Below, piece by piece: positions 341 through 7,401 of a stretch of 7,401 nucleotides of DNA. The stretch spans positions 1 to 7,401 of the forward strand of contig PRDJ01000008.1 of assembly GCA_003345555.1 (NCBI GenBank), written 5' to 3'. The first letter of the stretch is position 1. The number at the start of each line of letters is the position of its first letter. The position numbers and the translations under genes were made by a program. This DNA comes from Candidatus Thorarchaeota archaeon. Its GTDB lineage: Archaea; Asgardarchaeota; Thorarchaeia; Thorarchaeales; Thorarchaeaceae. Under the pieces are notes generated by a model. The model searched no databases. It saw only the letters and a program-made list of their open reading frames with translations, and had not been told where the DNA came from.

Positions 341-1465
341 TCACATCTTGACCTTTGAGGTTGAGTCGAAGGCCGCCAAGACCATTTCTGGGAGGTCAAG
401 AACGATAAGCATCTTTCCTGCTCGAGAAGCCAGCATGTTCTTGCAGAAGGGACATGAGGTTACCAAGAACTTGGCTCCAACCTCCCTCGCCTGTGACACG
501 CGGGCATCGCCGATAGTGCTGGCTTGATCAGTGAATAGTGTCCTCATACCAGCACCATTGCCGCAGCACATGGCATTTTCCCTACTGCGGGCCATCTCGA
601 CCACTTTCGTGCCGGAGACTCTTTCAATGACTTTTCTCGGGGGGTCGTATATGCCACTGTGTCGGCCGAGGTGGCATGGGTCATGGTATGTGATAGGGCC
701 GCCGAAGTCAACTGCCCTCAGAGCATCCAAGTGCTTTTCGAGCAACTGACTAATGTGAAGTACTGGCTTCTTTAGTTCAATCCCGAGCTGGGGGTAATCC
801 TTGGTGAACGCTCTGAAGCATCCTGGACACGTCACAACTATCTGCTCACCTTCAGATTTGTTCAGGGTGTCTGCATTATGGCGGGCCTGCTCAATTCCTA
901 GGTTTCGAAAGCCTGTCCTGAAGAGTGGAGAACCGCAGCACCATTCGTCAGGGGTCACGGACACCTTGTACCCGAGGTGAGAAAGTATTGAAACGGTACT
1001 ACGAGCGATGCCGTTTTCATGATAAGCCGCCGTACAGCCTGTGAAGTAGAGGATCTTCTTGCCTTGGGTCTTTGTTGGTACAAACCACTTGTTGCGCTTT
1101 CCATGAGGCTCGGCGAAGGGATTATGATTGGTCTTTATTGCAGAGGATATCTTATCGAGACCTCGAGGATATCGACCTTCATTGACCAGCCTCATTCGTT
1201 CATTCTCGACCATTGTGGCTATGTCAACTTGTGGCAAGCACCATGTGAGACACTGAGAGCATTCGAGACACTGGTAGAGCACTTCAATTGCGCGCTCATC
1301 AAGAGCGCGTGTTCCTTTTGCATCCTGATACATTAGGAGCGCACGGCCATGCGGCGTGGGAGAATCGGATCGCCAGGCCAGAAAAGTCGGGCACATGTGC
1401 CTGCACATCTTAGGACAACCTGCACAAAGACGAAGCTGCTCGATGGCCTCCGAATCTTCCATCAC
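341..1465 (-). CDS. (Fe-S)-binding oxidoreductase subunit: two [4Fe-4S] motifs plus two CCG domains (GlpC/GlcF/HdrD superfamily)
   Basis: 374 aa. Contains CAGCPKMCRHMCP and CLECSQCLTWC; CCG domain 1 (YFTGC..WCCGSP..VTCPGC); CCG domain 2 (YHDPCHLGR..MCCGNG..TSCPFC). Start is GTG 1465 or ATG 1462, overlapping the upstream TGA (GTGATG). RBS GGGAGGA at 1471-1477. Confidence 0.9.
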   Translation of the reverse strand: MMEDSEAIEQLRLCAGCPKMCRHMCPTFLAWRSDSPTPHGRALLMYQDAKGTRALDERAIEVLYQCLECSQCLTWCLPQVDIATMVENERMRLVNEGRYPRGLDKISSAIKTNHNPFAEPHGKRNKWFVPTKTQGKKILYFTGCTAAYHENGIARSTVSILSHLGYKVSVTPDEWCCGSPLFRTGFRNLGIEQARHNADTLNKSEGEQIVVTCPGCFRAFTKDYPQLGIELKKPVLHISQLLEKHLDALRAVDFGGPITYHDPCHLGRHSGIYDPPRKVIERVSGTKVVEMARSRENAMCCGNGAGMRTLFTDQASTIGDARVSQAREVGAKFLVTSCPFCKNMLASRAGKMLIVLDLPEMVLAAFDSTSKVKM

Positions 1466-2889
1466 GTATGTCCTCCCATCCCGAGCTTACCAGGGTTCAT
1501 GATGCCGTTGGGGTCCAGAACTTCCTTGATTTTCTTCAAGACTTCGAAGCTAGACCCGAGTTCAGCCTCGGTGTAGGTGCTTCGAGTGGTTCCGACTCCG
1601 TGCTGATGGCTCATGGTGCCTCCTTCTCTCAAGCAAGCCGCTACCCCGTCATCCCAGATTTCGCGGTATGTGGCCCACGCGCTTTCGGCATCCGGCTGCG
1701 AAACGAAGAATATCATGTAGATGCTGCCGCCGTTGGGATACATGTGCGAGAAATGAGACATGACAGCAGCACCGTGGGCTTCCATAACCCGCTTCATTTC
1801 ATGATATACATTCTCAAGTCTGTCGTAGGTCGCAACGATATCGATCGTATCGCCCACAGAAAAGCCGCTGGTGGCGAATTTCGTAGGATAGTACATATCG
1901 TACCTGTGTTCCCACCAGTATTTTGAGGGCCCTTCCCCATAGTCCTTTGCTCCGTTCTCGATGCAAATCCTGGCAGAGATGCTCTCGTCTATGTCCACCT
2001 TCTCCGGCCTGCCATCGAATGCGAGCATTAGCATACAATTCCCTTCCTCAACCTCAAAGTGAGTGCTTACATGCAGCGCCGTGTCCTCGGCATCGTACAG
2101 GCGGACCACTGATGGGAATATGCCCTCTCTGAATATGGCCCGAATGGCCATCAGCCCGCTATGAACATCTGGGAAGCACATGCTTCTGAAGTGTCTTGAA
2201 GGTGGAAGGGGAAATAGACGAAGAGTCGCTTCCGTTATCACGCATAGCGTTCCTTCGGAGCCTATGAAAAGCTGCCTCAAATCCGGCCCAACAGAGTGGC
2301 GCGGGACGGCCTTGCATCTTACGACACTTCCATCCGCTAGAACGACTTCGAGTCCTAGTGTCAAGTCCTCGATTTTGCCGTAGAGAGATGACATAGAGCC
2401 GCCGGAACGAGTAGCGATGAAACCGCCGACGTTTGATGCTCTAAGGGAAGTGGGTGTATGACCGGTCGTGTAGCCGTGCCTATTGACTTCCTCTTCCAAG
2501 TCTATGCCTACAGTCCCAGCCTGCACGCGGACCAGCAGGGACTCACCATCGATGGCAAGAATCTTGTCCATGCGTTTCAGGTCAAGCTGAATTCCACCAT
2601 AGGTAGGTTGTGTTCCTCCACAGGTACCAGCACCCCCGCCAACAGGAACTACCGGCACTCTCAGATCGTTGGCGACCCTTAGGATCTTAGATACCTCCTC
2701 TGTCGACGATGGGTAGACAATCACATCTGCTAGCGGAAGGGTCTCGCCTGCCCTAATCTTGGCTTCGCTAAGCGGCCACGCGTCGTGGGCATTCAGGACT
2801 GCATCAGTCTCGTCAGTCGTGAAATGGTCCGGGCCCACGATAGCTTCAATCTGCTCCACTAACTTGGCCTTAGTTCTAGTATCCAACAA
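1462..2889 (-). CDS. FAD-binding oxidoreductase of the VAO/PCMH fold, alkyl-dihydroxyacetonephosphate synthase (AGPS/ADPS)-like
   Basis: 475 aa. FAD_binding_4 motifs: VIVYPSSTEEVSKIL, VPVGGG, GHTPTS..SNVGGFIATRSGG..SLYGKIEDL, GPDLRQLFIGSEGTLCVITEA. C-terminal motifs: VRLYDAEDT, SHFSHMYPNGGSIY, SHQHGVG, DPNGIMNPGKL. These resemble AGPS (RxYD, SHxY..xY, SHHHGVG) more than GlcD/D-lactate dehydrogenases (GEHG). TTG start with RBS GAGGTGA 7 nt upstream. Confidence 0.85.
   Translation of the reverse strand: MLDTRTKAKLVEQIEAIVGPDHFTTDETDAVLNAHDAWPLSEAKIRAGETLPLADVIVYPSSTEEVSKILRVANDLRVPVVPVGGGAGTCGGTQPTYGGIQLDLKRMDKILAIDGESLLVRVQAGTVGIDLEEEVNRHGYTTGHTPTSLRASNVGGFIATRSGGSMSSLYGKIEDLTLGLEVVLADGSVVRCKAVPRHSVGPDLRQLFIGSEGTLCVITEATLRLFPLPPSRHFRSMCFPDVHSGLMAIRAIFREGIFPSVVRLYDAEDTALHVSTHFEVEEGNCMLMLAFDGRPEKVDIDESISARICIENGAKDYGEGPSKYWWEHRYDMYYPTKFATSGFSVGDTIDIVATYDRLENVYHEMKRVMEAHGAAVMSHFSHMYPNGGSIYMIFFVSQPDAESAWATYREIWDDGVAACLREGGTMSHQHGVGTTRSTYTEAELGSSFEVLKKIKEVLDPNGIMNPGKLGMGGHT
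1471..1477 (-). promoter_or_regulatory. Shine-Dalgarno site for the second CCG gene (GGGAGGA)
   Basis: The minus strand reads GGGAGGA-catac-GTG-ATG. Confidence 0.7.
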
Positions 2890-2896
2890 TCACAGG

Positions 2897-2903
2897 TCAC
2901 CTC
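2897..2903 (-). promoter_or_regulatory. Shine-Dalgarno site for the AGPS-like gene (GAGGTGA)
   Basis: The minus strand reads GAGGTGA-cctgtga-TTG. The motif includes the glpC stop codon and lies 7 nt before TTG 2889. Confidence 0.75.
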
Positions 2904-4135
2904 TTTTGTGGGAGTCTGCGTGCGAAGAAGACTGTGAGATCCTCAACAACAGTTTGGCTGCCGGCGCGAAACAGATTGCTTTCAATCTGGGCGGTGCACA
3001 GCGGGCACGGCGTGACAACAGTGTCGGCCTCCGTAGAAGAAATTGCGGCAACGTTCTCTGTGACTACCGCATCAGCTACGTCTCTCGAATGATACCCTAC
3101 CATTCCTCCACCGCCACAGCAAGAGTCTGACATACCAGATTCCTCGATTGTGACACCGGGTATGAGGTTGAGAATGGCGCGAGCATGCTCCGCTATCTGT
3201 CGTGATGTATGCCGGATTATGTGGCATGGGTCATGGATTGTCACCTTTGCTGGAGTGAACCGGCCTCGGCCCTTAAACGGGCGAGAGACCTTGTTGAACC
3301 CAATCTCCTCAGCAAGGAACTCAACTAGATGGTAGACCGGTATTCCCCATCCATCACGCGCACTGATATCGCATAGATTCGAAGTGCAACCAGCACACGT
3401 CGTGACTATCTTCTTCACACCGAGGGATTTCACCTTGTCCTGAAGACGCCCCGCCAGCAATCGTGCGGTCTCATCGTCGCCTATCAGTTTTGAAGGAAGG
3501 CCGCAACAACTCATCTGATCCAGCAGAGTGTAATTGATTCCGAAATAGCTGAGAATGTACTTGGCTGCTTCCTTTACTTCTTGGGCGCGCTCCTCGGCTT
3601 GACATCCGGGATAGAACAACACATCTGCACCAGGCACAACACGGTCAGGAACAGAAGGCAGCCCCAAGGTCTCAAGTCGAACCTTGCGGCTCTCAGATTT
3701 CTCTTCCTGGTCAGCCCAAGGTTCGAAAGCGAGAGAGTGCTTCACGATTACGTCGTGTTCGTCAAGTAGGGCTTTTGGTACGAGGTCCGGTCTCTGTGCG
3801 AAGATTCTCGTGCGAATCATATTGACTACAGCAGGAATATTCACCTTTCTAGGGCAGACTTCTCGGCATGTGCCGCATCCAGTGCAAAGATACACCTTGT
3901 CACTGGTTGTCCAGAATTCGGGGGGAGAGCGACTCAGTTCAACTGCGATACTTCTCGGACCACTGAACCTCTCAACACCCACCGCTCTCACAACGGGGCA
4001 GTGACCAATGCACAGACCACAGTTGATGCAGCCCTCAACCGAACGGACAGCTTCGAGCTCGTCTCTCTTGAAGGGCTGAATCCGCTCGGCTTTCAGTGTC
4101 GCCTTGACAGCCTCGTAAGCTTGCTCGTCGCTCAA
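2897..4135 (-). CDS. glpC: Anaerobic glycerol-3-phosphate dehydrogenase subunit C-like Fe-S protein (2x[4Fe-4S] + 2 CCG domains)
   Basis: 412 aa. Contains CINCGLCIGHCP and CTGCGTCREVCP; CCG motifs FYPGC..SCCGLP..TTCAGC and IHDPCH..SCCGGGG..TPCPLC. It directly follows glpB, with a TTG start overlapping the glpB TGA (TTGA, 4132-4135). The glpC name rests on synteny plus domain architecture. Confidence 0.8.
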   Translation of the reverse strand: MSDEQAYEAVKATLKAERIQPFKRDELEAVRSVEGCINCGLCIGHCPVVRAVGVERFSGPRSIAVELSRSPPEFWTTSDKVYLCTGCGTCREVCPRKVNIPAVVNMIRTRIFAQRPDLVPKALLDEHDVIVKHSLAFEPWADQEEKSESRKVRLETLGLPSVPDRVVPGADVLFYPGCQAEERAQEVKEAAKYILSYFGINYTLLDQMSCCGLPSKLIGDDETARLLAGRLQDKVKSLGVKKIVTTCAGCTSNLCDISARDGWGIPVYHLVEFLAEEIGFNKVSRPFKGRGRFTPAKVTIHDPCHIIRHTSRQIAEHARAILNLIPGVTIEESGMSDSCCGGGGMVGYHSRDVADAVVTENVAAISSTEADTVVTPCPLCTAQIESNLFRAGSQTVVEDLTVFFARRLPQKR

Positions 4136-5505
4136 GGTAATGCCCCCTTGACATAATCTGCCGCATTTGCACCCGCAGCATAGCCGGTAGCGAGTGCTAC
4201 ACCGAGTCCACTTTTCTCTGCCGAGTAATTGTAGCGAGAGAGAATCGAGCCTGCGGCGAACACGTTGTCTGCTACAGGTTGGCCATCGGTGCCTGTCGGT
4301 CGAAACATGCTATCAAAAGCTACACCGACGCCAAAGAGAGAATGACCCTCGGGGCTCAGAGCCAAGATGTTGGTATAGCGTTGAGGCCTTGCTCCCGCAG
4401 TCTGGTATGACTCAACATCGACCACTGGCAATTTCACGAGTGTCTCAACGAAACCGCTTTCATCACCCTTGATGCCGCCTCCGATGAATTTACCAGAGGC
4501 GAGCACGACCGCAGCCGGGATTATGTTGAAGGTCCGTTGAGGGGTTTTCACAGCGACGCTATCGATGTGCCCTTCTTTCTTTTCAAATGAGACAGCCTCG
4601 TGACCGATGAGCAATCTGCCGCCGTCGGTGCTCAGCGCAGACTCCAGAGCATTCTGTAATCTGAGACCGGGAACTGAGGGTGGAAATGCCAGAAGCTCGA
4701 ATACTTTGGCACCCATCTTGTCTTCGAGCTCGAACTTGTTTGCCCTCGCTCGACGCAGACCCAAGACAGGAGGGAAGGCAATGAAGTCAGCTCCTGTACT
4801 TCTCACATGGTCTTTCAATGTCTTAGCCAGTTCAGCAAAGCCTTCCTCGCGATCCATATAGCGAGCAATATCAAACGAATAGATATTGTGAGGCTGCCCA
4901 AAAGGCAATACGTCCAATGTGCAGTTTGCCACTCTTCGGGGTCTGTTTTCTCCCGGTAGACGACTAGCTAAGAAGTTCTTGGCGGTAATCGATGAATTGC
5001 AGTCAGGGAAACCCCGAAAGCCAACAAAAAGAACGATGCTATCGTGCCAATCATCAGAACCTTCAACGAACATGGTTCCTTGGACCAATGATGTTGGCTT
5101 GGATGAGCCCAGCAATGTCACAGCCTGAATAGTACGTCCAAGGTCTCCAACCAATGCAGACGGCGAACCATTCAGCTTGCCCTTAATCCAGTCGACGGCC
5201 TCACTAACGCGCGCTACAACTCTTTCTGGATCCACAGGAAGACCTCCATCGGAATACCCCAGTACTGAATATGGGTGAAGAGGATAGATTTCCGACACCG
5301 CATTCAGGCCCTCAATCGCGTTCGCAAAAGGAACATTCGCACCGGGCAGGTAACTCATGATGTCTACAGCACCAGAGGATATTGCTGTCGCGCCTTGCCC
5401 CTTACGTAAGACGACAACCTTCAGGCCTGCTTCCGCACCAACCATTCCTGCAACAAGACCAGCCATTCCACCGCCAACGACGAGCAGGTCAGCCTTGATA
5501 TCCAT
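4132..5505 (-). CDS. glpB: Anaerobic glycerol-3-phosphate dehydrogenase subunit B (flavoprotein)
   Basis: 457 aa. N-terminal VVGGGMAGLVAG, GQGATAISSGAVD, FPPSVPGLRLQNAL, VLASGKFIGGGI, NVFAAGSIL and SGLGVALATG match GlpB motifs as I recall them (e.g. SSGSLDLL, PPSVLGIRL, LASGSFFSGGL). The ATG immediately follows the glpA TAG. RBS GAGGAGG at 5514-5520. Confidence 0.92.
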   Translation of the reverse strand: MDIKADLLVVGGGMAGLVAGMVGAEAGLKVVVLRKGQGATAISSGAVDIMSYLPGANVPFANAIEGLNAVSEIYPLHPYSVLGYSDGGLPVDPERVVARVSEAVDWIKGKLNGSPSALVGDLGRTIQAVTLLGSSKPTSLVQGTMFVEGSDDWHDSIVLFVGFRGFPDCNSSITAKNFLASRLPGENRPRRVANCTLDVLPFGQPHNIYSFDIARYMDREEGFAELAKTLKDHVRSTGADFIAFPPVLGLRRARANKFELEDKMGAKVFELLAFPPSVPGLRLQNALESALSTDGGRLLIGHEAVSFEKKEGHIDSVAVKTPQRTFNIIPAAVVLASGKFIGGGIKGDESGFVETLVKLPVVDVESYQTAGARPQRYTNILALSPEGHSLFGVGVAFDSMFRPTGTDGQPVADNVFAAGSILSRYNYSAEKSGLGVALATGYAAGANAADYVKGALP

Positions 5506-7158
5506 CTAGCTCGCCTCCTCCCAAGGCTTGGGCTCGTAATGCGCGTCGGAGCGGTCTAGGTTTGCCACGCAGGCATAGATTCCCTGTACAACTTCCTCCT
5601 GACTGAGCTGCTCTCCTCTCATCGGCGGTCTCTTGCCCTTCCATCGCTCAGATAGGTAATCCAGTATTTCGAGCTGGAATTGCTCTCCGGAGAGTCCGAG
5701 TTCGTCTGCCAATATGCCCGCGGCCTTGAATGTGCATAGTGTGCCTTGACAGGGTCCCGTACCTAATCTGACACGCCGCCTGAGGTCGTTCAATGTCTGG
5801 GGGAATTCCTCACGTATTGCATACCTAATCTCCGCCTCGATTACTGGCTCGCAAGCGCATATAGTTGAAAGCCATTCTGGATGCTCGCGAGTGAGTTCAA
5901 GCACTTTGCCAAGCTCGGTTCCTCTTCTCGCCCTCAGTCTCTCAACTGCGTGCCGAGAGATATTGTACTGCGCAGCCAAGGCAAGTACATCAACACTTGC
6001 TTCATTGCCAGGCAAAGGCTCGATATGGGTTGTGCACTTAATGTCCTTGCCGAGCTTCTTGCACACCATGTCTGTGACACTCTCAGCCATGTGGCGGCAC
6101 ATGACAAGCTTCCCGCCGGTGAAGCTCAGTAGTCCATCAATGCCGTCCGGTGCGTGGTCCACCACCTGATAGCCCCGAGTGACCTTCCCTTCTGGTATCT
6201 TCCACTGCGCTACTAGAGGGCGTGCACCTTCCATGGTTCTGATTATCCGAGCTTGCCTTATCGATGGTACTACCCATTCGATGCTCTTTAGCAGGTACTC
6301 TATCTCATCGTACGACGCAACTAGAGTATCTGGGTCTTCCCAGCTATCTAGCGCAGTTGTGCCTAACAAAGCGGTGTTCTCGTGCGGAAAGAGGTATATC
6401 ATTCGCCCGTCAACAGCCTTCGCAATTATACCAACATTCACGACCCGTCTGTCCAATATCACGTGTGCGCCCTTGTTCAGACGGATTTCGAGACGAGCAT
6501 TCAGTAGACCTGCAATCTTGTCCGCCCAAGGACCCCCTGCGTTCACAACTACCTTTGCTGTGACCAACTCCTTCTGAGCGGTCAACCGGTTGAAGAAGGC
6601 GACTTCAATCATGTTGCCTGAAGTTTTCTTCATTTCGGTGACTTCACAGTAGGTGCGGATGTCTGCGCCTCGCCTACGCGCATCAAGAGCCTGCAGGATG
6701 CATAGACGGAATGGATCAATGAAGTACTCCTCGAAGTACATCGAAGCAATCAGCTCGGGGTTTATCTTCGGTTCAATCTTCAGTGAATCCTCCGGTGTGA
6801 GAAACAAAACAGGGGGGACATCGCGGCTAGCTGCACGCTTGGAATACTCTTCAGCAAAGTTCCCTCCGCTTGATAGGTCACTCATTTCCAGCATCGGAGT
6901 GAGAATGGGATTCTTCATTATGATGTTCTGGGCTATGCGTTTGAAATAGACTACTTCCTGAGAGCACATGTCGACAATGTCTGGTTCTTCCATGTACTTC
7001 AGACCAGACGATATCATGCCGGCACAGGTTCCCACTGTTGCAGATGCTATGTCGTCTCGTTCCAGCATTAGGGTCTTCAGGCCACGCATAGCGCAATCAC
7101 GGGCGACAGCAGTCCCGGTGCTGCCACCGCCAATGATAATCACATCATACTCATTCAT
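5506..7158 (-). CDS. glpA: Anaerobic glycerol-3-phosphate dehydrogenase subunit A-like FAD enzyme with C-terminal BFD-like [2Fe-2S] domain; divergent active-site motifs
   Basis: About 550 aa from ATG 7158 (MNEYDVIIIGGGSTG). Contains ERDDIA, VVNAGGPWA, KGAHV, GTT, GARPL, TRGY..DH, GGKL and C-terminal CACE..RRRVRLGTGPCQGTLC. The ORF track start (TTG 7191) adds 11 residues before the Rossmann motif and is less likely. Confidence 0.92.
   Translation of the reverse strand: MNEYDVIIIGGGSTGTAVARDCAMRGLKTLMLERDDIASATVGTCAGMISSGLKYMEEPDIVDMCSQEVVYFKRIAQNIIMKNPILTPMLEMSDLSSGGNFAEEYSKRAASRDVPPVLFLTPEDSLKIEPKINPELIASMYFEEYFIDPFRLCILQALDARRRGADIRTYCEVTEMKKTSGNMIEVAFFNRLTAQKELVTAKVVVNAGGPWADKIAGLLNARLEIRLNKGAHVILDRRVVNVGIIAKAVDGRMIYLFPHENTALLGTTALDSWEDPDTLVASYDEIEYLLKSIEWVVPSIRQARIIRTMEGARPLVAQWKIPEGKVTRGYQVVDHAPDGIDGLLSFTGGKLVMCRHMAESVTDMVCKKLGKDIKCTTHIEPLPGNEASVDVLALAAQYNISRHAVERLRARRGTELGKVLELTREHPEWLSTICACEPVIEAEIRYAIREEFPQTLNDLRRRVRLGTGPCQGTLCTFKAAGILADELGLSGEQFQLEILDYLSERWKGKRPPMRGEQLSQEEVVQGIYACVANLDRSDAHYEPKPWEEAS
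5514..5520 (-). promoter_or_regulatory. Shine-Dalgarno site for glpB (GAGGAGG)
   Basis: The minus strand reads GAGGAGG-cgagc-TAG-ATG, placing the motif 8 nt before the glpB ATG, inside the last codons of glpA. Confidence 0.75.
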
Positions 7159-7269
7159 CGATGGTCCGAGCTCCGGTACAGTTCCCGGCAAGGAAACCGC
7201 GTGTTCATGGGTTCAGCACTTCGACAGTAGTAGCTGATTCATGTCGCAAATAGAAGTGTTTCGGATTAT

Positions 7270-7346
7270 GGTATATTCAGACGTGGCACATTAAAACAAG
7301 ACAGACAAATCGTGGCAACCGCTCACGTCCACGATAGATTAAAAGG
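7270..7346. promoter_or_regulatory. Probable promoter/operator region: two ATTAAAA (TTTTAAT) boxes flanking a 7-bp inverted repeat
   Basis: No convincing ORF upstream of glpA. ATTAAAA occurs at 7290-7296 and 7338-7344. ATCGTGG (7309-7315) and CCACGAT (7329-7335) form a perfect inverted repeat with a 13-nt spacer. The functional assignment is inference. Confidence 0.4.
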
Positions 7347-7401
7347 TCTGCAACCGCCAAGTACGATTCGAGAGAGCTATTCTTGGCTTTTGAGGGTGAC
7401 T

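Follow-up and report, generated by a model that had tools for sequence, protein, structure and literature searches.

The catalytic subunit of a GlpABC-type dehydrogenase in an Asgard archaeon, referred to here as GlpA', carries serine in place of the histidine that is highly conserved in its family, and the residues four positions before and after it on the same active-site loop are replaced as well. The gene, glpA' (protein P0001), is part of a 7401-base stretch of DNA, hereafter the window, which is the whole of contig C8 in a Thorarchaeota-type Asgard genome of 2.28 Mb and 93% completeness. On the sequence evidence taken together, we put at about 0.5 the probability that GlpA' is catalytically active as a dehydrogenase and that its substrate resembles glycerol phosphate without being ordinary sn-glycerol-3-phosphate (sn-G3P). 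An earlier note on the same DNA had proposed an active enzyme with changed specificity or mechanism, and this proposal is upheld in part: it is favored by strict conservation of the substitution, by intact flavin adenine dinucleotide (FAD), phosphate and Fe-S residues, by a parallel change in the operon kinase and by the coexistence of histidine-type (His-type) operons in related genomes, but it has to contend with glpA' being the sole G3P-dehydrogenase-type gene found in its genome.

The altered loop reads GTCAGMISSGLKY (window 6994-7032, minus strand, by translation), and its counterpart in E. coli GlpA is GRNHGLLHSGARY. In HMMER alignments against the solved structures 3da1, 2rgh, 2qcu and 4x9m, the position of the family histidine is taken by Ser61, which aligns with the His of LVHGGLRY in 3da1, of LVHGGIRY in 2rgh and of LIHGGLRY in E. 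coli GlpD (2qcu, His50), as well as with His51 of M. pneumoniae GlpO (MpGlpO, 4x9m). The arginine that follows in the motif is lysine here, Lys65 (AAG) being aligned with the Arg of GlpD/GlpO (Arg54 in GlpD), and Ala57 (GCC) aligns with GlpD Ser46, MpGlpO Ser47 and E. coli GlpA His51; the conserved tyrosine is kept, as Tyr66 aligns with GlpD Tyr55. Three changes are thus found on one loop at positions i-4, i and i+4, namely Ser/His to Ala57, His to Ser61 and Arg to Lys65. The serine codon, TCG, is unlike CAC or CAT at all three bases, and conservation among homologues rules out the sequencing error that the earlier note had already thought incapable of explaining it.

His51 of MpGlpO has been proposed to abstract the C2-hydroxyl proton (PMC10726252), in line with the role of catalytic base in GlpO named in the earlier note. 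In L2HGDH, a related enzyme, His92 is the sole residue touching the C2 oxygen of the substrate, and the activity of the H92A variant was not measurable; Ser88, at the position of Ala57, binds both substrate and flavin, and S88A cuts kcat/KM about 28-fold (PMC10726252).

Elsewhere GlpA' keeps its cofactor- and phosphate-site residues. Both of the other arginines named in the earlier note are in place, R324 of GARPL, opposite MpGlpO Arg320, and R339 of VTRGY; R263 lies opposite MpGlpO Lys258 in the alignment to 4x9m, and the lysine of the GGK motif (K361) is present. The counterparts of R263, R324 and K361, that is, MpGlpO Lys258 and Arg320 and the GGK motif, we take to be phosphate-site residues. 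The gene is intact, with an open frame, a GxGxxG FAD motif and all four cysteines of the BFD domain (C445, C447, C481, C486). Positions fixed in the serine-type (Ser-type) proteins and rare elsewhere further include Ile96, Tyr152, Phe157, Tyr266, Phe268, Ala280, Val363, His414 and Arg525. Most of the clade-specific changes run toward hydrophobic or aromatic side chains; Tyr266, Phe268, Ala280 and Val363 are interspersed among the anion-site residues, and two shifts stand beside conserved active-site motifs, GTTD/S becoming GTTA (Ala280) and GGKLT becoming GGKLV (Val363). An AlphaFold2 (AF2) model of GlpA' (pLDDT 92, pTM 0.93) has E. coli GlpD and Streptococcus GlpO as its best Foldseek matches, with TM scores of 0.78-0.83, and this confirms, at the level of a predicted structure, the GlpD/GlpO fold only.

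The substitution is shared by all close relatives that could be compared. The 120 closest database proteins, at 66-91% identity, come mainly from Thor-, Loki-, Hod- and Odin-labelled Asgard metagenome-assembled genomes, and every close homologue among them whose N-terminal region was displayed keeps the serine, the motif being MISSG(L/F/Y)KY with P0051, in which Met replaces Lys, as the sole exception. A survey of 400 Asgard species genomes, from which 40 loci were fetched, gave matches in 76 of the 85 genomes of the source's family, nearly all of them to a whole or fragmentary orthologue with an identity of 64% or more; orthologues of 41-52% identity occurred in several other Asgard families. 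All 15 fetched proteins scoring above 530 bits against P0001 read GMIS(S/G/A)GxKY, at identities of 41-52% and 64-78%. The motif occurs in 41 different DNA versions, none of which departs from Ser and Lys; Lys65 is encoded by AAG or AAA, Ser61 by TCN in 36 and AGY in 5, and all six serine codons are used. Moving between TCN and AGY while keeping serine is a classic sign of purifying selection, and retention of Ser61 across both codon families therefore points to such selection on this residue. A sequencing error or a pseudogene was considered and is ruled out by the invariance of the motif in these versions together with the intact frame. The comparisons thereby confirm the substitution as a selected, clade-defining feature, far beyond chance or error.

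In a tree of 183 sequences, the Ser-type proteins form one clade of 31 tips with an SH-like support of 1.0 and zero His-type members. Support for its sister relations is weak (0.06-0.34), and hence no claim is made about the direct ancestor of the clade. The family motif is as highly conserved as the earlier note had held: outside the Ser clade, 139 of 151 family members have the histidine, 138 of these 139 have the arginine alongside, and every sampled canonical GlpA and GlpD/GlpO sequence has both. The substitution is not shared by the verified G3P enzymes that were compared, since E. coli GlpA, GlpD, 2rgh, 3da1 and 4x9m all have His. The 12 non-His exceptions outside the clade are scattered, long-branched offshoots. 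In another long-branched offshoot (P0172, P0216, P0260), Ser occupies the His position within a different motif (GILSGEPHW or similar) lacking the Arg-Tyr, and histidine has therefore been lost several times in the family. A small separate GlpA-like clade, represented by L055:8971-10599 (Asgard genome G001) and P0136, has the loop GMIGGPVG or GMMGGPVG, without His, Arg or Tyr; the L055 gene adjoins GlpB and GlpC genes, and an AGPS-like gene is absent within 9 kb of it. Many His-type members, such as P0131, P0132, P0167, P0185, P0186, P0192 and P0238, reach about double the length of GlpA (920-1000 amino acids) and probably represent fusions of GlpA with GlpB; among the Asgard Ser-type genes, too, there is a frame open for 999 amino acids (G117:C1:682279-683889).

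GlpA' has the domain set of the GlpA type, a DAO FAD domain followed by DAO_C and a BFD [2Fe-2S] domain with four cysteines, and, as in GlpABC systems, glpB' and glpC'-like genes adjoin its gene. Nevertheless, it scores 417.1 bits against TIGR03377 (cut-off 552.8) and 371.7 bits against NF008313 (cut-off 425), and it also fails the GlpD models (NF008899, 212 bits versus 360). His-type Asgard GlpA proteins from other loci pass TIGR03377 with 616-633 bits. In the tree, GlpA' falls into a third group, between canonical GlpA (GLLHSGxRY) and GlpD/GlpO (KLIHGGLRY), whose His-type members read GMIHGGxRY and, at 438-458 bits, are likewise under the TIGR03377 cut-off. By sequence, GlpA' is a member of a distinct subfamily, so far found only in Asgard archaea, and a new variant within the GlpABC-type dehydrogenases.

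The operon in which the Ser-type gene resides runs FGGY' kinase - GlpA' - GlpB' - GlpC' - AGPS-like flavoprotein - CCG2, usually followed by a radical SAM gene. The kinase is altered in parallel with the dehydrogenase. FGGY' proteins score 162-205 bits against the GlpK model, the cut-off of which is 590; LsrK and XylB match them best, though only in part. In an alignment with E. coli GlpK, they keep the catalytic Asp of GDQQ, the Trp and GTGxF, but read TTRDC/TQRAT where GlpK has TNQRET (Glu84 being lost) and lack the DPYFS loop with Tyr135; Glu84 and Tyr135 are presumably glycerol-contact residues of GlpK. On these alignments, FGGY' is a non-GlpK kinase. A second kinase of the source genome (contig C1, 23420-24904) keeps all five GlpK glycerol-site motifs. 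This GlpK-signature kinase on contig C1 (L007:1495-3015, plus strand) scores 397 bits against XylB, above cut-off, and 378 bits against GlpK; no dehydrogenase adjoins it, and a LarA-like gene of the lactate-racemase family (L007:3074-4474, minus strand) converges on it.

In two other Asgard families, most genomes possess, in addition to the Ser-type operon, a separate one composed of a GlpK-signature kinase, a His-type GlpA (616 bits against TIGR03377, passing), GlpB and a CCG protein. A second GlpA-family match besides the Ser-type gene was obtained in 9 of the 10 genomes of these families, and fetched loci confirm both operons in three of them (G114, G116, G117). One of the coexisting sets has the textbook residues, and the other is altered at substrate-contact positions in kinase and dehydrogenase alike. 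Since these genomes hold two complete kinase/dehydrogenase sets, we argue that the sets are not redundant.

The earlier note had asked whether the His-to-Ser subclade coincides with AGPS-linked operons, and the answer is affirmative in one direction only: Ser-type genes with enough flanking sequence are always AGPS-linked (13 of the 15 fetched loci, the remaining two ending at a contig edge), but AGPS-linked genes elsewhere keep the histidine. Scanning species-representative genomes with an alignment of the AGPS-like protein yielded 80 loci, 13 of them with a GlpA/GlpD-family neighbor, in Acidimicrobiia, Caulobacter, Bacteroidota, Leptospirales, Kribbella and Clostridiaceae; 12 neighbors could be aligned, and all 12 keep LxHGGxRY. 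In three Loki-type Asgard loci, a longer form of the AGPS-like gene is paired with a gene of the GlpD type, which reads LVHAGLRY or LIHGGFRY, and at L054, the closest His-type relative (GMIHGGFRY), an FGGY'-AGPS-like-CCG2 module lies 2.5 kb away. The idea that His-to-Ser is a general mark of AGPS-linked G3P dehydrogenases was accordingly dropped, as 12 bacterial, three Asgard GlpD-type and one Asgard GlpA-like protein keep His and Arg; judged from these sequences, the Ser/Lys pair characterizes a single Asgard clade and not AGPS-linked enzymes generally. AGPS-like genes often stand beside ordinary G3P dehydrogenases, and this points to dihydroxyacetone phosphate (DHAP), or something very similar, as the intermediate they share. 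In the Loki-type loci L069:8893-12268, L070:8935-12250 and L079:1321-6374, GlpD-type LxHGGxRY genes stand directly beside AGPS-like genes of about 550 amino acids with SHHHGIG, and matching bacterial pairings (Acidimicrobiia, Caulobacter, Bacteroidota) occur at L107, L110, L113-L116, L124, L127, L129 and L140, so this pairing of G3P dehydrogenase and AGPS-like genes is widespread.

The best PDB sequence matches of the AGPS-like protein of the window (P0004) are AGPS itself, 2uuu with 213 bits and 4bby with 188 bits, ahead of D-lactate and glycolate enzymes. It keeps the equivalents of Cavia Arg419 (in RLYD), Tyr578 and His615/His617, His616 being Gln, and has SHQHGVG instead of the GEHG metal site of GlcD and the D-lactate dehydrogenases. 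At this motif (window 1591-1611, minus strand), the fetched Thor-type orthologues have His-Gln-His, and other Asgard proteins, E. coli YgcU and true AGPS have His-His-His.

From these data we infer a scheme in which GlpA' would be the catalytic subunit of a GlpABC-type dehydrogenase with FAD and a [2Fe-2S] cluster, its FAD site, anion (phosphate) site and Fe-S domain being kept and the loop facing the carbinol carbon of the substrate being remodelled at three residues. FGGY' would phosphorylate, and GlpA' would then oxidise, a small glycerol-like alcohol outside the glycerol/sn-G3P pair; the electrons would leave via GlpB' and the CCG-type GlpC', and the AGPS-like flavoprotein, together with its CCG Fe-S partner, would receive the resulting keto-phosphate (DHAP or a similar compound). 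Speculatively, proton abstraction without the histidine might be performed by the Lys65/Tyr66 pair, or a base might be dispensable. The Lys/Tyr pair could act as base with Ser61 hydrogen-bonding the hydroxyl, an arrangement that may fit either a C2-OH repositioned as in the mirror image or a hydride transfer that needs no base.

Several observations weigh against a substrate other than sn-G3P. The phosphate-site residues of GlpA' are unchanged. Some flavoprotein dehydrogenases of this superfamily need no catalytic base. AGPS-like genes stand beside ordinary His-type GlpD in many bacteria, and the pathway there therefore runs through the normal step from G3P to DHAP. Above all, a TIGR03377 search of the source genome finds glpA' as the only GlpA/GlpD gene, and GpsA was not found there either, a search for its C-terminal domain giving no match. 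Two candidates for a hidden second enzyme were rejected, the weak TIGR03377 match on contig 10 being a geranylgeranyl reductase and the DAO-family gene on contig 64 being sarcosine-oxidase-like; at a genome completeness of 93%, the absence is only provisional. G3P itself probably has two sources in this genome, a GlpK-signature kinase and a GDPD phosphodiesterase. If these do make sn-G3P, then, as far as the gene content indicates, GlpA' would be the only visible enzyme returning it to DHAP. With no other G3P dehydrogenase found, GlpA' may therefore have to handle sn-G3P, which must be regarded as a serious candidate substrate.

These observations are what gives weight to the strongest alternative, according to which GlpA' oxidises sn-G3P to DHAP by different chemistry, the histidine being replaced by the Lys65/Tyr66 dyad, by water or by base-free hydride transfer, and the substitutions amount to a peculiarity of the lineage in what is otherwise a normal anaerobic G3P dehydrogenase. 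GlpB' lies above the curated GlpB cut-off, as this explanation would have it, and published Asgard reconstructions take GlpABC as a G3P dehydrogenase (PMC6737245; 10.1101/2023.11.21.568159). On the other hand, a mere quirk sits poorly with three loop residues having been altered together and then fixed, with the loss of the GlpK glycerol-site residues from FGGY', with a canonical kinase/His-GlpA operon standing beside the Ser-type operon in some genomes, where redundancy is unlikely, and with the fact that a His-to-Ala change kills activity in the related L2HGDH. We consider this alternative possible, though we lean against it.

If the substrate of GlpA' has indeed changed, one specific form of the change would be stereochemical inversion: the kinase would make sn-glycerol-1-phosphate (sn-G1P), and GlpA' would oxidise sn-G1P to DHAP, Ser61 and Lys65 filling positions that suit a mirror-image placement of the C2-OH and CH2OH groups. 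The Ser-type clade is found only in archaea with G1P-based lipids, a gene resembling sn-G1P dehydrogenase (G1PDH) is present in the source genome, bacterial AGPS-linked modules use His-type GlpD, and the residues in contact with the substrate were altered in the kinase alongside those of the dehydrogenase. Since either enantiomer yields DHAP, the downstream AGPS-like enzyme would need no change. All of this is purely inferential, however, and to our knowledge neither a G1P dehydrogenase that uses FAD nor a glycerol kinase that forms G1P has been described; G1P and DHAP can already be interconverted by NAD-dependent G1PDH, and in one Asgard genome (that of L054) the enzyme serving the same module is of the His type. 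We therefore rate inversion as improbable in itself.

A second specific form, which we regard as quite unlikely, involves ether or acyl lipids. The kinase would phosphorylate a 1-O-alkyl- or acyl-glycerol, GlpA' would turn the lyso-lipid phosphate, by oxidation, into alkyl- or acyl-DHAP, and the AGPS-like enzyme would remove or exchange the C1 substituent without oxygen. The equivalents of AGPS Arg419, Tyr578 and His615/617 in the AGPS-like protein are consistent with such a role, as are the hydrophobic or aromatic shifts in GlpA' (Ala57, Ile96, Tyr152, Phe157, Tyr266, Phe268, Ala280, Val363) and the beta-oxidation, SCP2 and acyl-CoA-ligase-like genes beside the operon in one relative. Yet an Fe-S partner of its own would be superfluous for a redox-neutral exchange, and the AGPS-like protein lacks the N-terminal domain of true AGPS. 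The neighborhood in question, in GCA_021498125.1 (L003:74-9489, 16832-21157), is of a fatty-acid type: the operon is flanked by genes for a 3-hydroxyacyl-CoA dehydrogenase, two enoyl-CoA hydratases, a thiolase with a DUF35-type partner and SCP2, and by MBL hydrolase, GNAT and acyl-CoA-ligase-like genes.

Finally, the loss of the proposed base might mean that GlpA' is a dead subunit kept solely as a scaffold or electron conduit, but the intact GxGxxG motif, phosphate-site residues and Fe-S cysteines, and replaced positions that are invariant rather than drifting, make this very hard to believe.

The features of the window are listed in Table 1; all its genes are on the minus strand and tightly packed. 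The open frame of glpA' extends over 561 codons (5506-7191, minus strand), up to a TTG at 7191; judging by homologues, which measure 548-554 amino acids, translation probably starts at the ATG at 7156-7158. Pfam matches in GlpA' are DAO (PF01266, 1e-43), DAO_C (PF16901, 5e-14) and Fer2_BFD (PF04324, 4e-9). The glpB' gene abuts glpA' with a gap of 0 and overlaps glpC' by 4 nucleotides. GlpC' remains under the GlpC cut-offs (78 versus 280 and 124 versus 278 bits), its nearest relatives being TfrB/HdrD-type proteins. The CCG2 gene overlaps the AGPS-like gene by 4 nucleotides and is kept downstream of it in all complete operons. The radical SAM gene closes the operon in relatives, and the L003 protein scores 289 bits against TIGR04043, just below the cut-off of 303.7. 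An FGGY kinase gene precedes glpA' in relatives, and in the source genome the FGGY' orthologue (72% identity) sits at the extreme end of contig C58, about 125 bases from the contig end (L006, 1501-2946 of the locus), while the window contig begins just upstream of glpA' (window 7192-7401). For these reasons, C58 and the window contig probably join near window position 7401, placing FGGY' beside glpA'.

Table 1. Coordinates of genes and active-site features in the 7401-base window.
Feature	Position	Strand	Basis or residues
GlpA' (P0001), Ser-type catalytic subunit: FAD DAO-fold + DAO_C + BFD [2Fe-2S]	5506..7158	-	Pfam, TIGR03377, AF2/Foldseek
GlpA' substrate/flavin loop GTCAGMISSGLKY	6994..7032	-	Ala57 7021-7023, Ser61 7009-7011, Lys65 6997-6999, Tyr66 6994-6996
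GlpA' retained anion-site residues	6103..6405	-	Arg263 6403-6405, Arg324 6220-6222, Arg339 6175-6177, Lys361 6109-6111
GlpA' BFD-like [2Fe-2S] domain	5707..5865	-	Cys445, Cys447, Cys481, Cys486; PF04324 over residues 443-495
GlpB' (P0002), FAD_binding_2	4132..5505	-	TIGR03378 202 bits, above 174 cut-off
GlpC'-like Fe-S subunit (P0003), two 4Fe-4S motifs + two CCG domains	2897..4135	-	Pfam CCG 4e-29, Fer4_8 2e-13
AGPS-like flavoprotein (P0004), FAD_binding_4 + FAD-oxidase_C, 475 amino acids	1462..2889	-	motifs RLYD, SH.Y..G..IY, SHQHGVG
CCG2, second CCG Fe-S protein (P0005)	341..1465	-	Pfam CCG 2e-37
MSMEG_0568-family radical SAM gene, N-terminal 100 codons	2..301	-	53% identity to radical SAM gene of relative L003

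Asgard GlpA/GlpABC genes are routinely scored as G3P dehydrogenase in metabolic reconstructions and in arguments on how eukaryotic membranes arose and on the lipid divide (PMC6737245, PMC6431249, 10.1101/2023.11.21.568159). For Ser-type "GlpABC" genes, oxidation of ordinary glycerol-3-phosphate should not be taken for granted: either this family can do without the accepted mechanism with His as base, or another phosphorylated alcohol is oxidised in these archaea. If the stereo-inverted possibility were true, GlpA' would be the first G1P dehydrogenase to depend on FAD and FGGY' the first kinase of its family to form G1P; the two would feed an AGPS-like enzyme and would constitute a mirror-image route from glycerol (or 3-O-alkylglycerol) through an sn-glycerol-1-phosphate(-type) ester to a DHAP(-type) ketone, giving Asgard archaea a dedicated salvage or breakdown route for glycerol lipid backbones of archaeal handedness. 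Resolving the substrate of GlpA' would also help to assign a function to the widespread AGPS-like/YgcU family encoded in the same operon.

The nearest relatives of GlpA' are the GlpA-like proteins with 'GMIHGG' (P0127, P0129-P0134; Asgard L054), which share 40-45% identity and have GlpB/GlpC partners but, reading GMIHGGxRY, retain both His and Arg; outside Asgard archaea, the nearest ones (P0126, P0127, P0129, P0130) are encoded on short metagenome contigs whose context is little informative. With E. coli GlpA, GlpA' shares the domain order, the glpA-glpB-glpC arrangement and the GTT, GxRPL, xxSR and GGK motifs, whereas His51, His55 and Arg59 of the E. coli loop are Ala, Ser and Lys in GlpA', which also branches outside the canonical GlpA clade. 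Unlike canonical GlpABC systems, GlpC' is HdrD/TfrB-like, the operon kinase is not GlpK, and AGPS-like, CCG and radical SAM genes follow in the same operon. The GlpD/GlpO enzymes (2qcu/2r4e, 2rgh, 4x9m) are the best structural matches, with a homologous loop and the Arg/Lys phosphate-site positions in common, but GlpD Ser46/His50/Arg54 and MpGlpO Ser47/His51 are replaced in GlpA', and GlpD/GlpO have neither a BFD domain nor GlpB/GlpC partners. Drosophila L2HGDH (PDB 8w78) shares the loop of the superfamily, in which Ser88 precedes His92 at i-4, but acts on a carboxylate substrate, lacks an Fe-S domain and is only about 16% identical to GlpA'. Regarding the downstream partner, P0004 has the RLYD, SH.Y..G..Y and SH(H/Q)HG(I/V)G signatures of true AGPS (2uuu/4bby), from which it differs in reading HQH instead of HHH, in lacking the N-terminal domain (475 versus 584-658 amino acids) and in having a dedicated CCG Fe-S partner. 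A full-text literature search for ygcU returned nothing on its function; E. coli YgcU, of the ygc cluster with the FGGY kinase YgcE, bears the same AGPS signatures, and its family recurs beside FGGY kinases and G3P-dehydrogenase-type genes.

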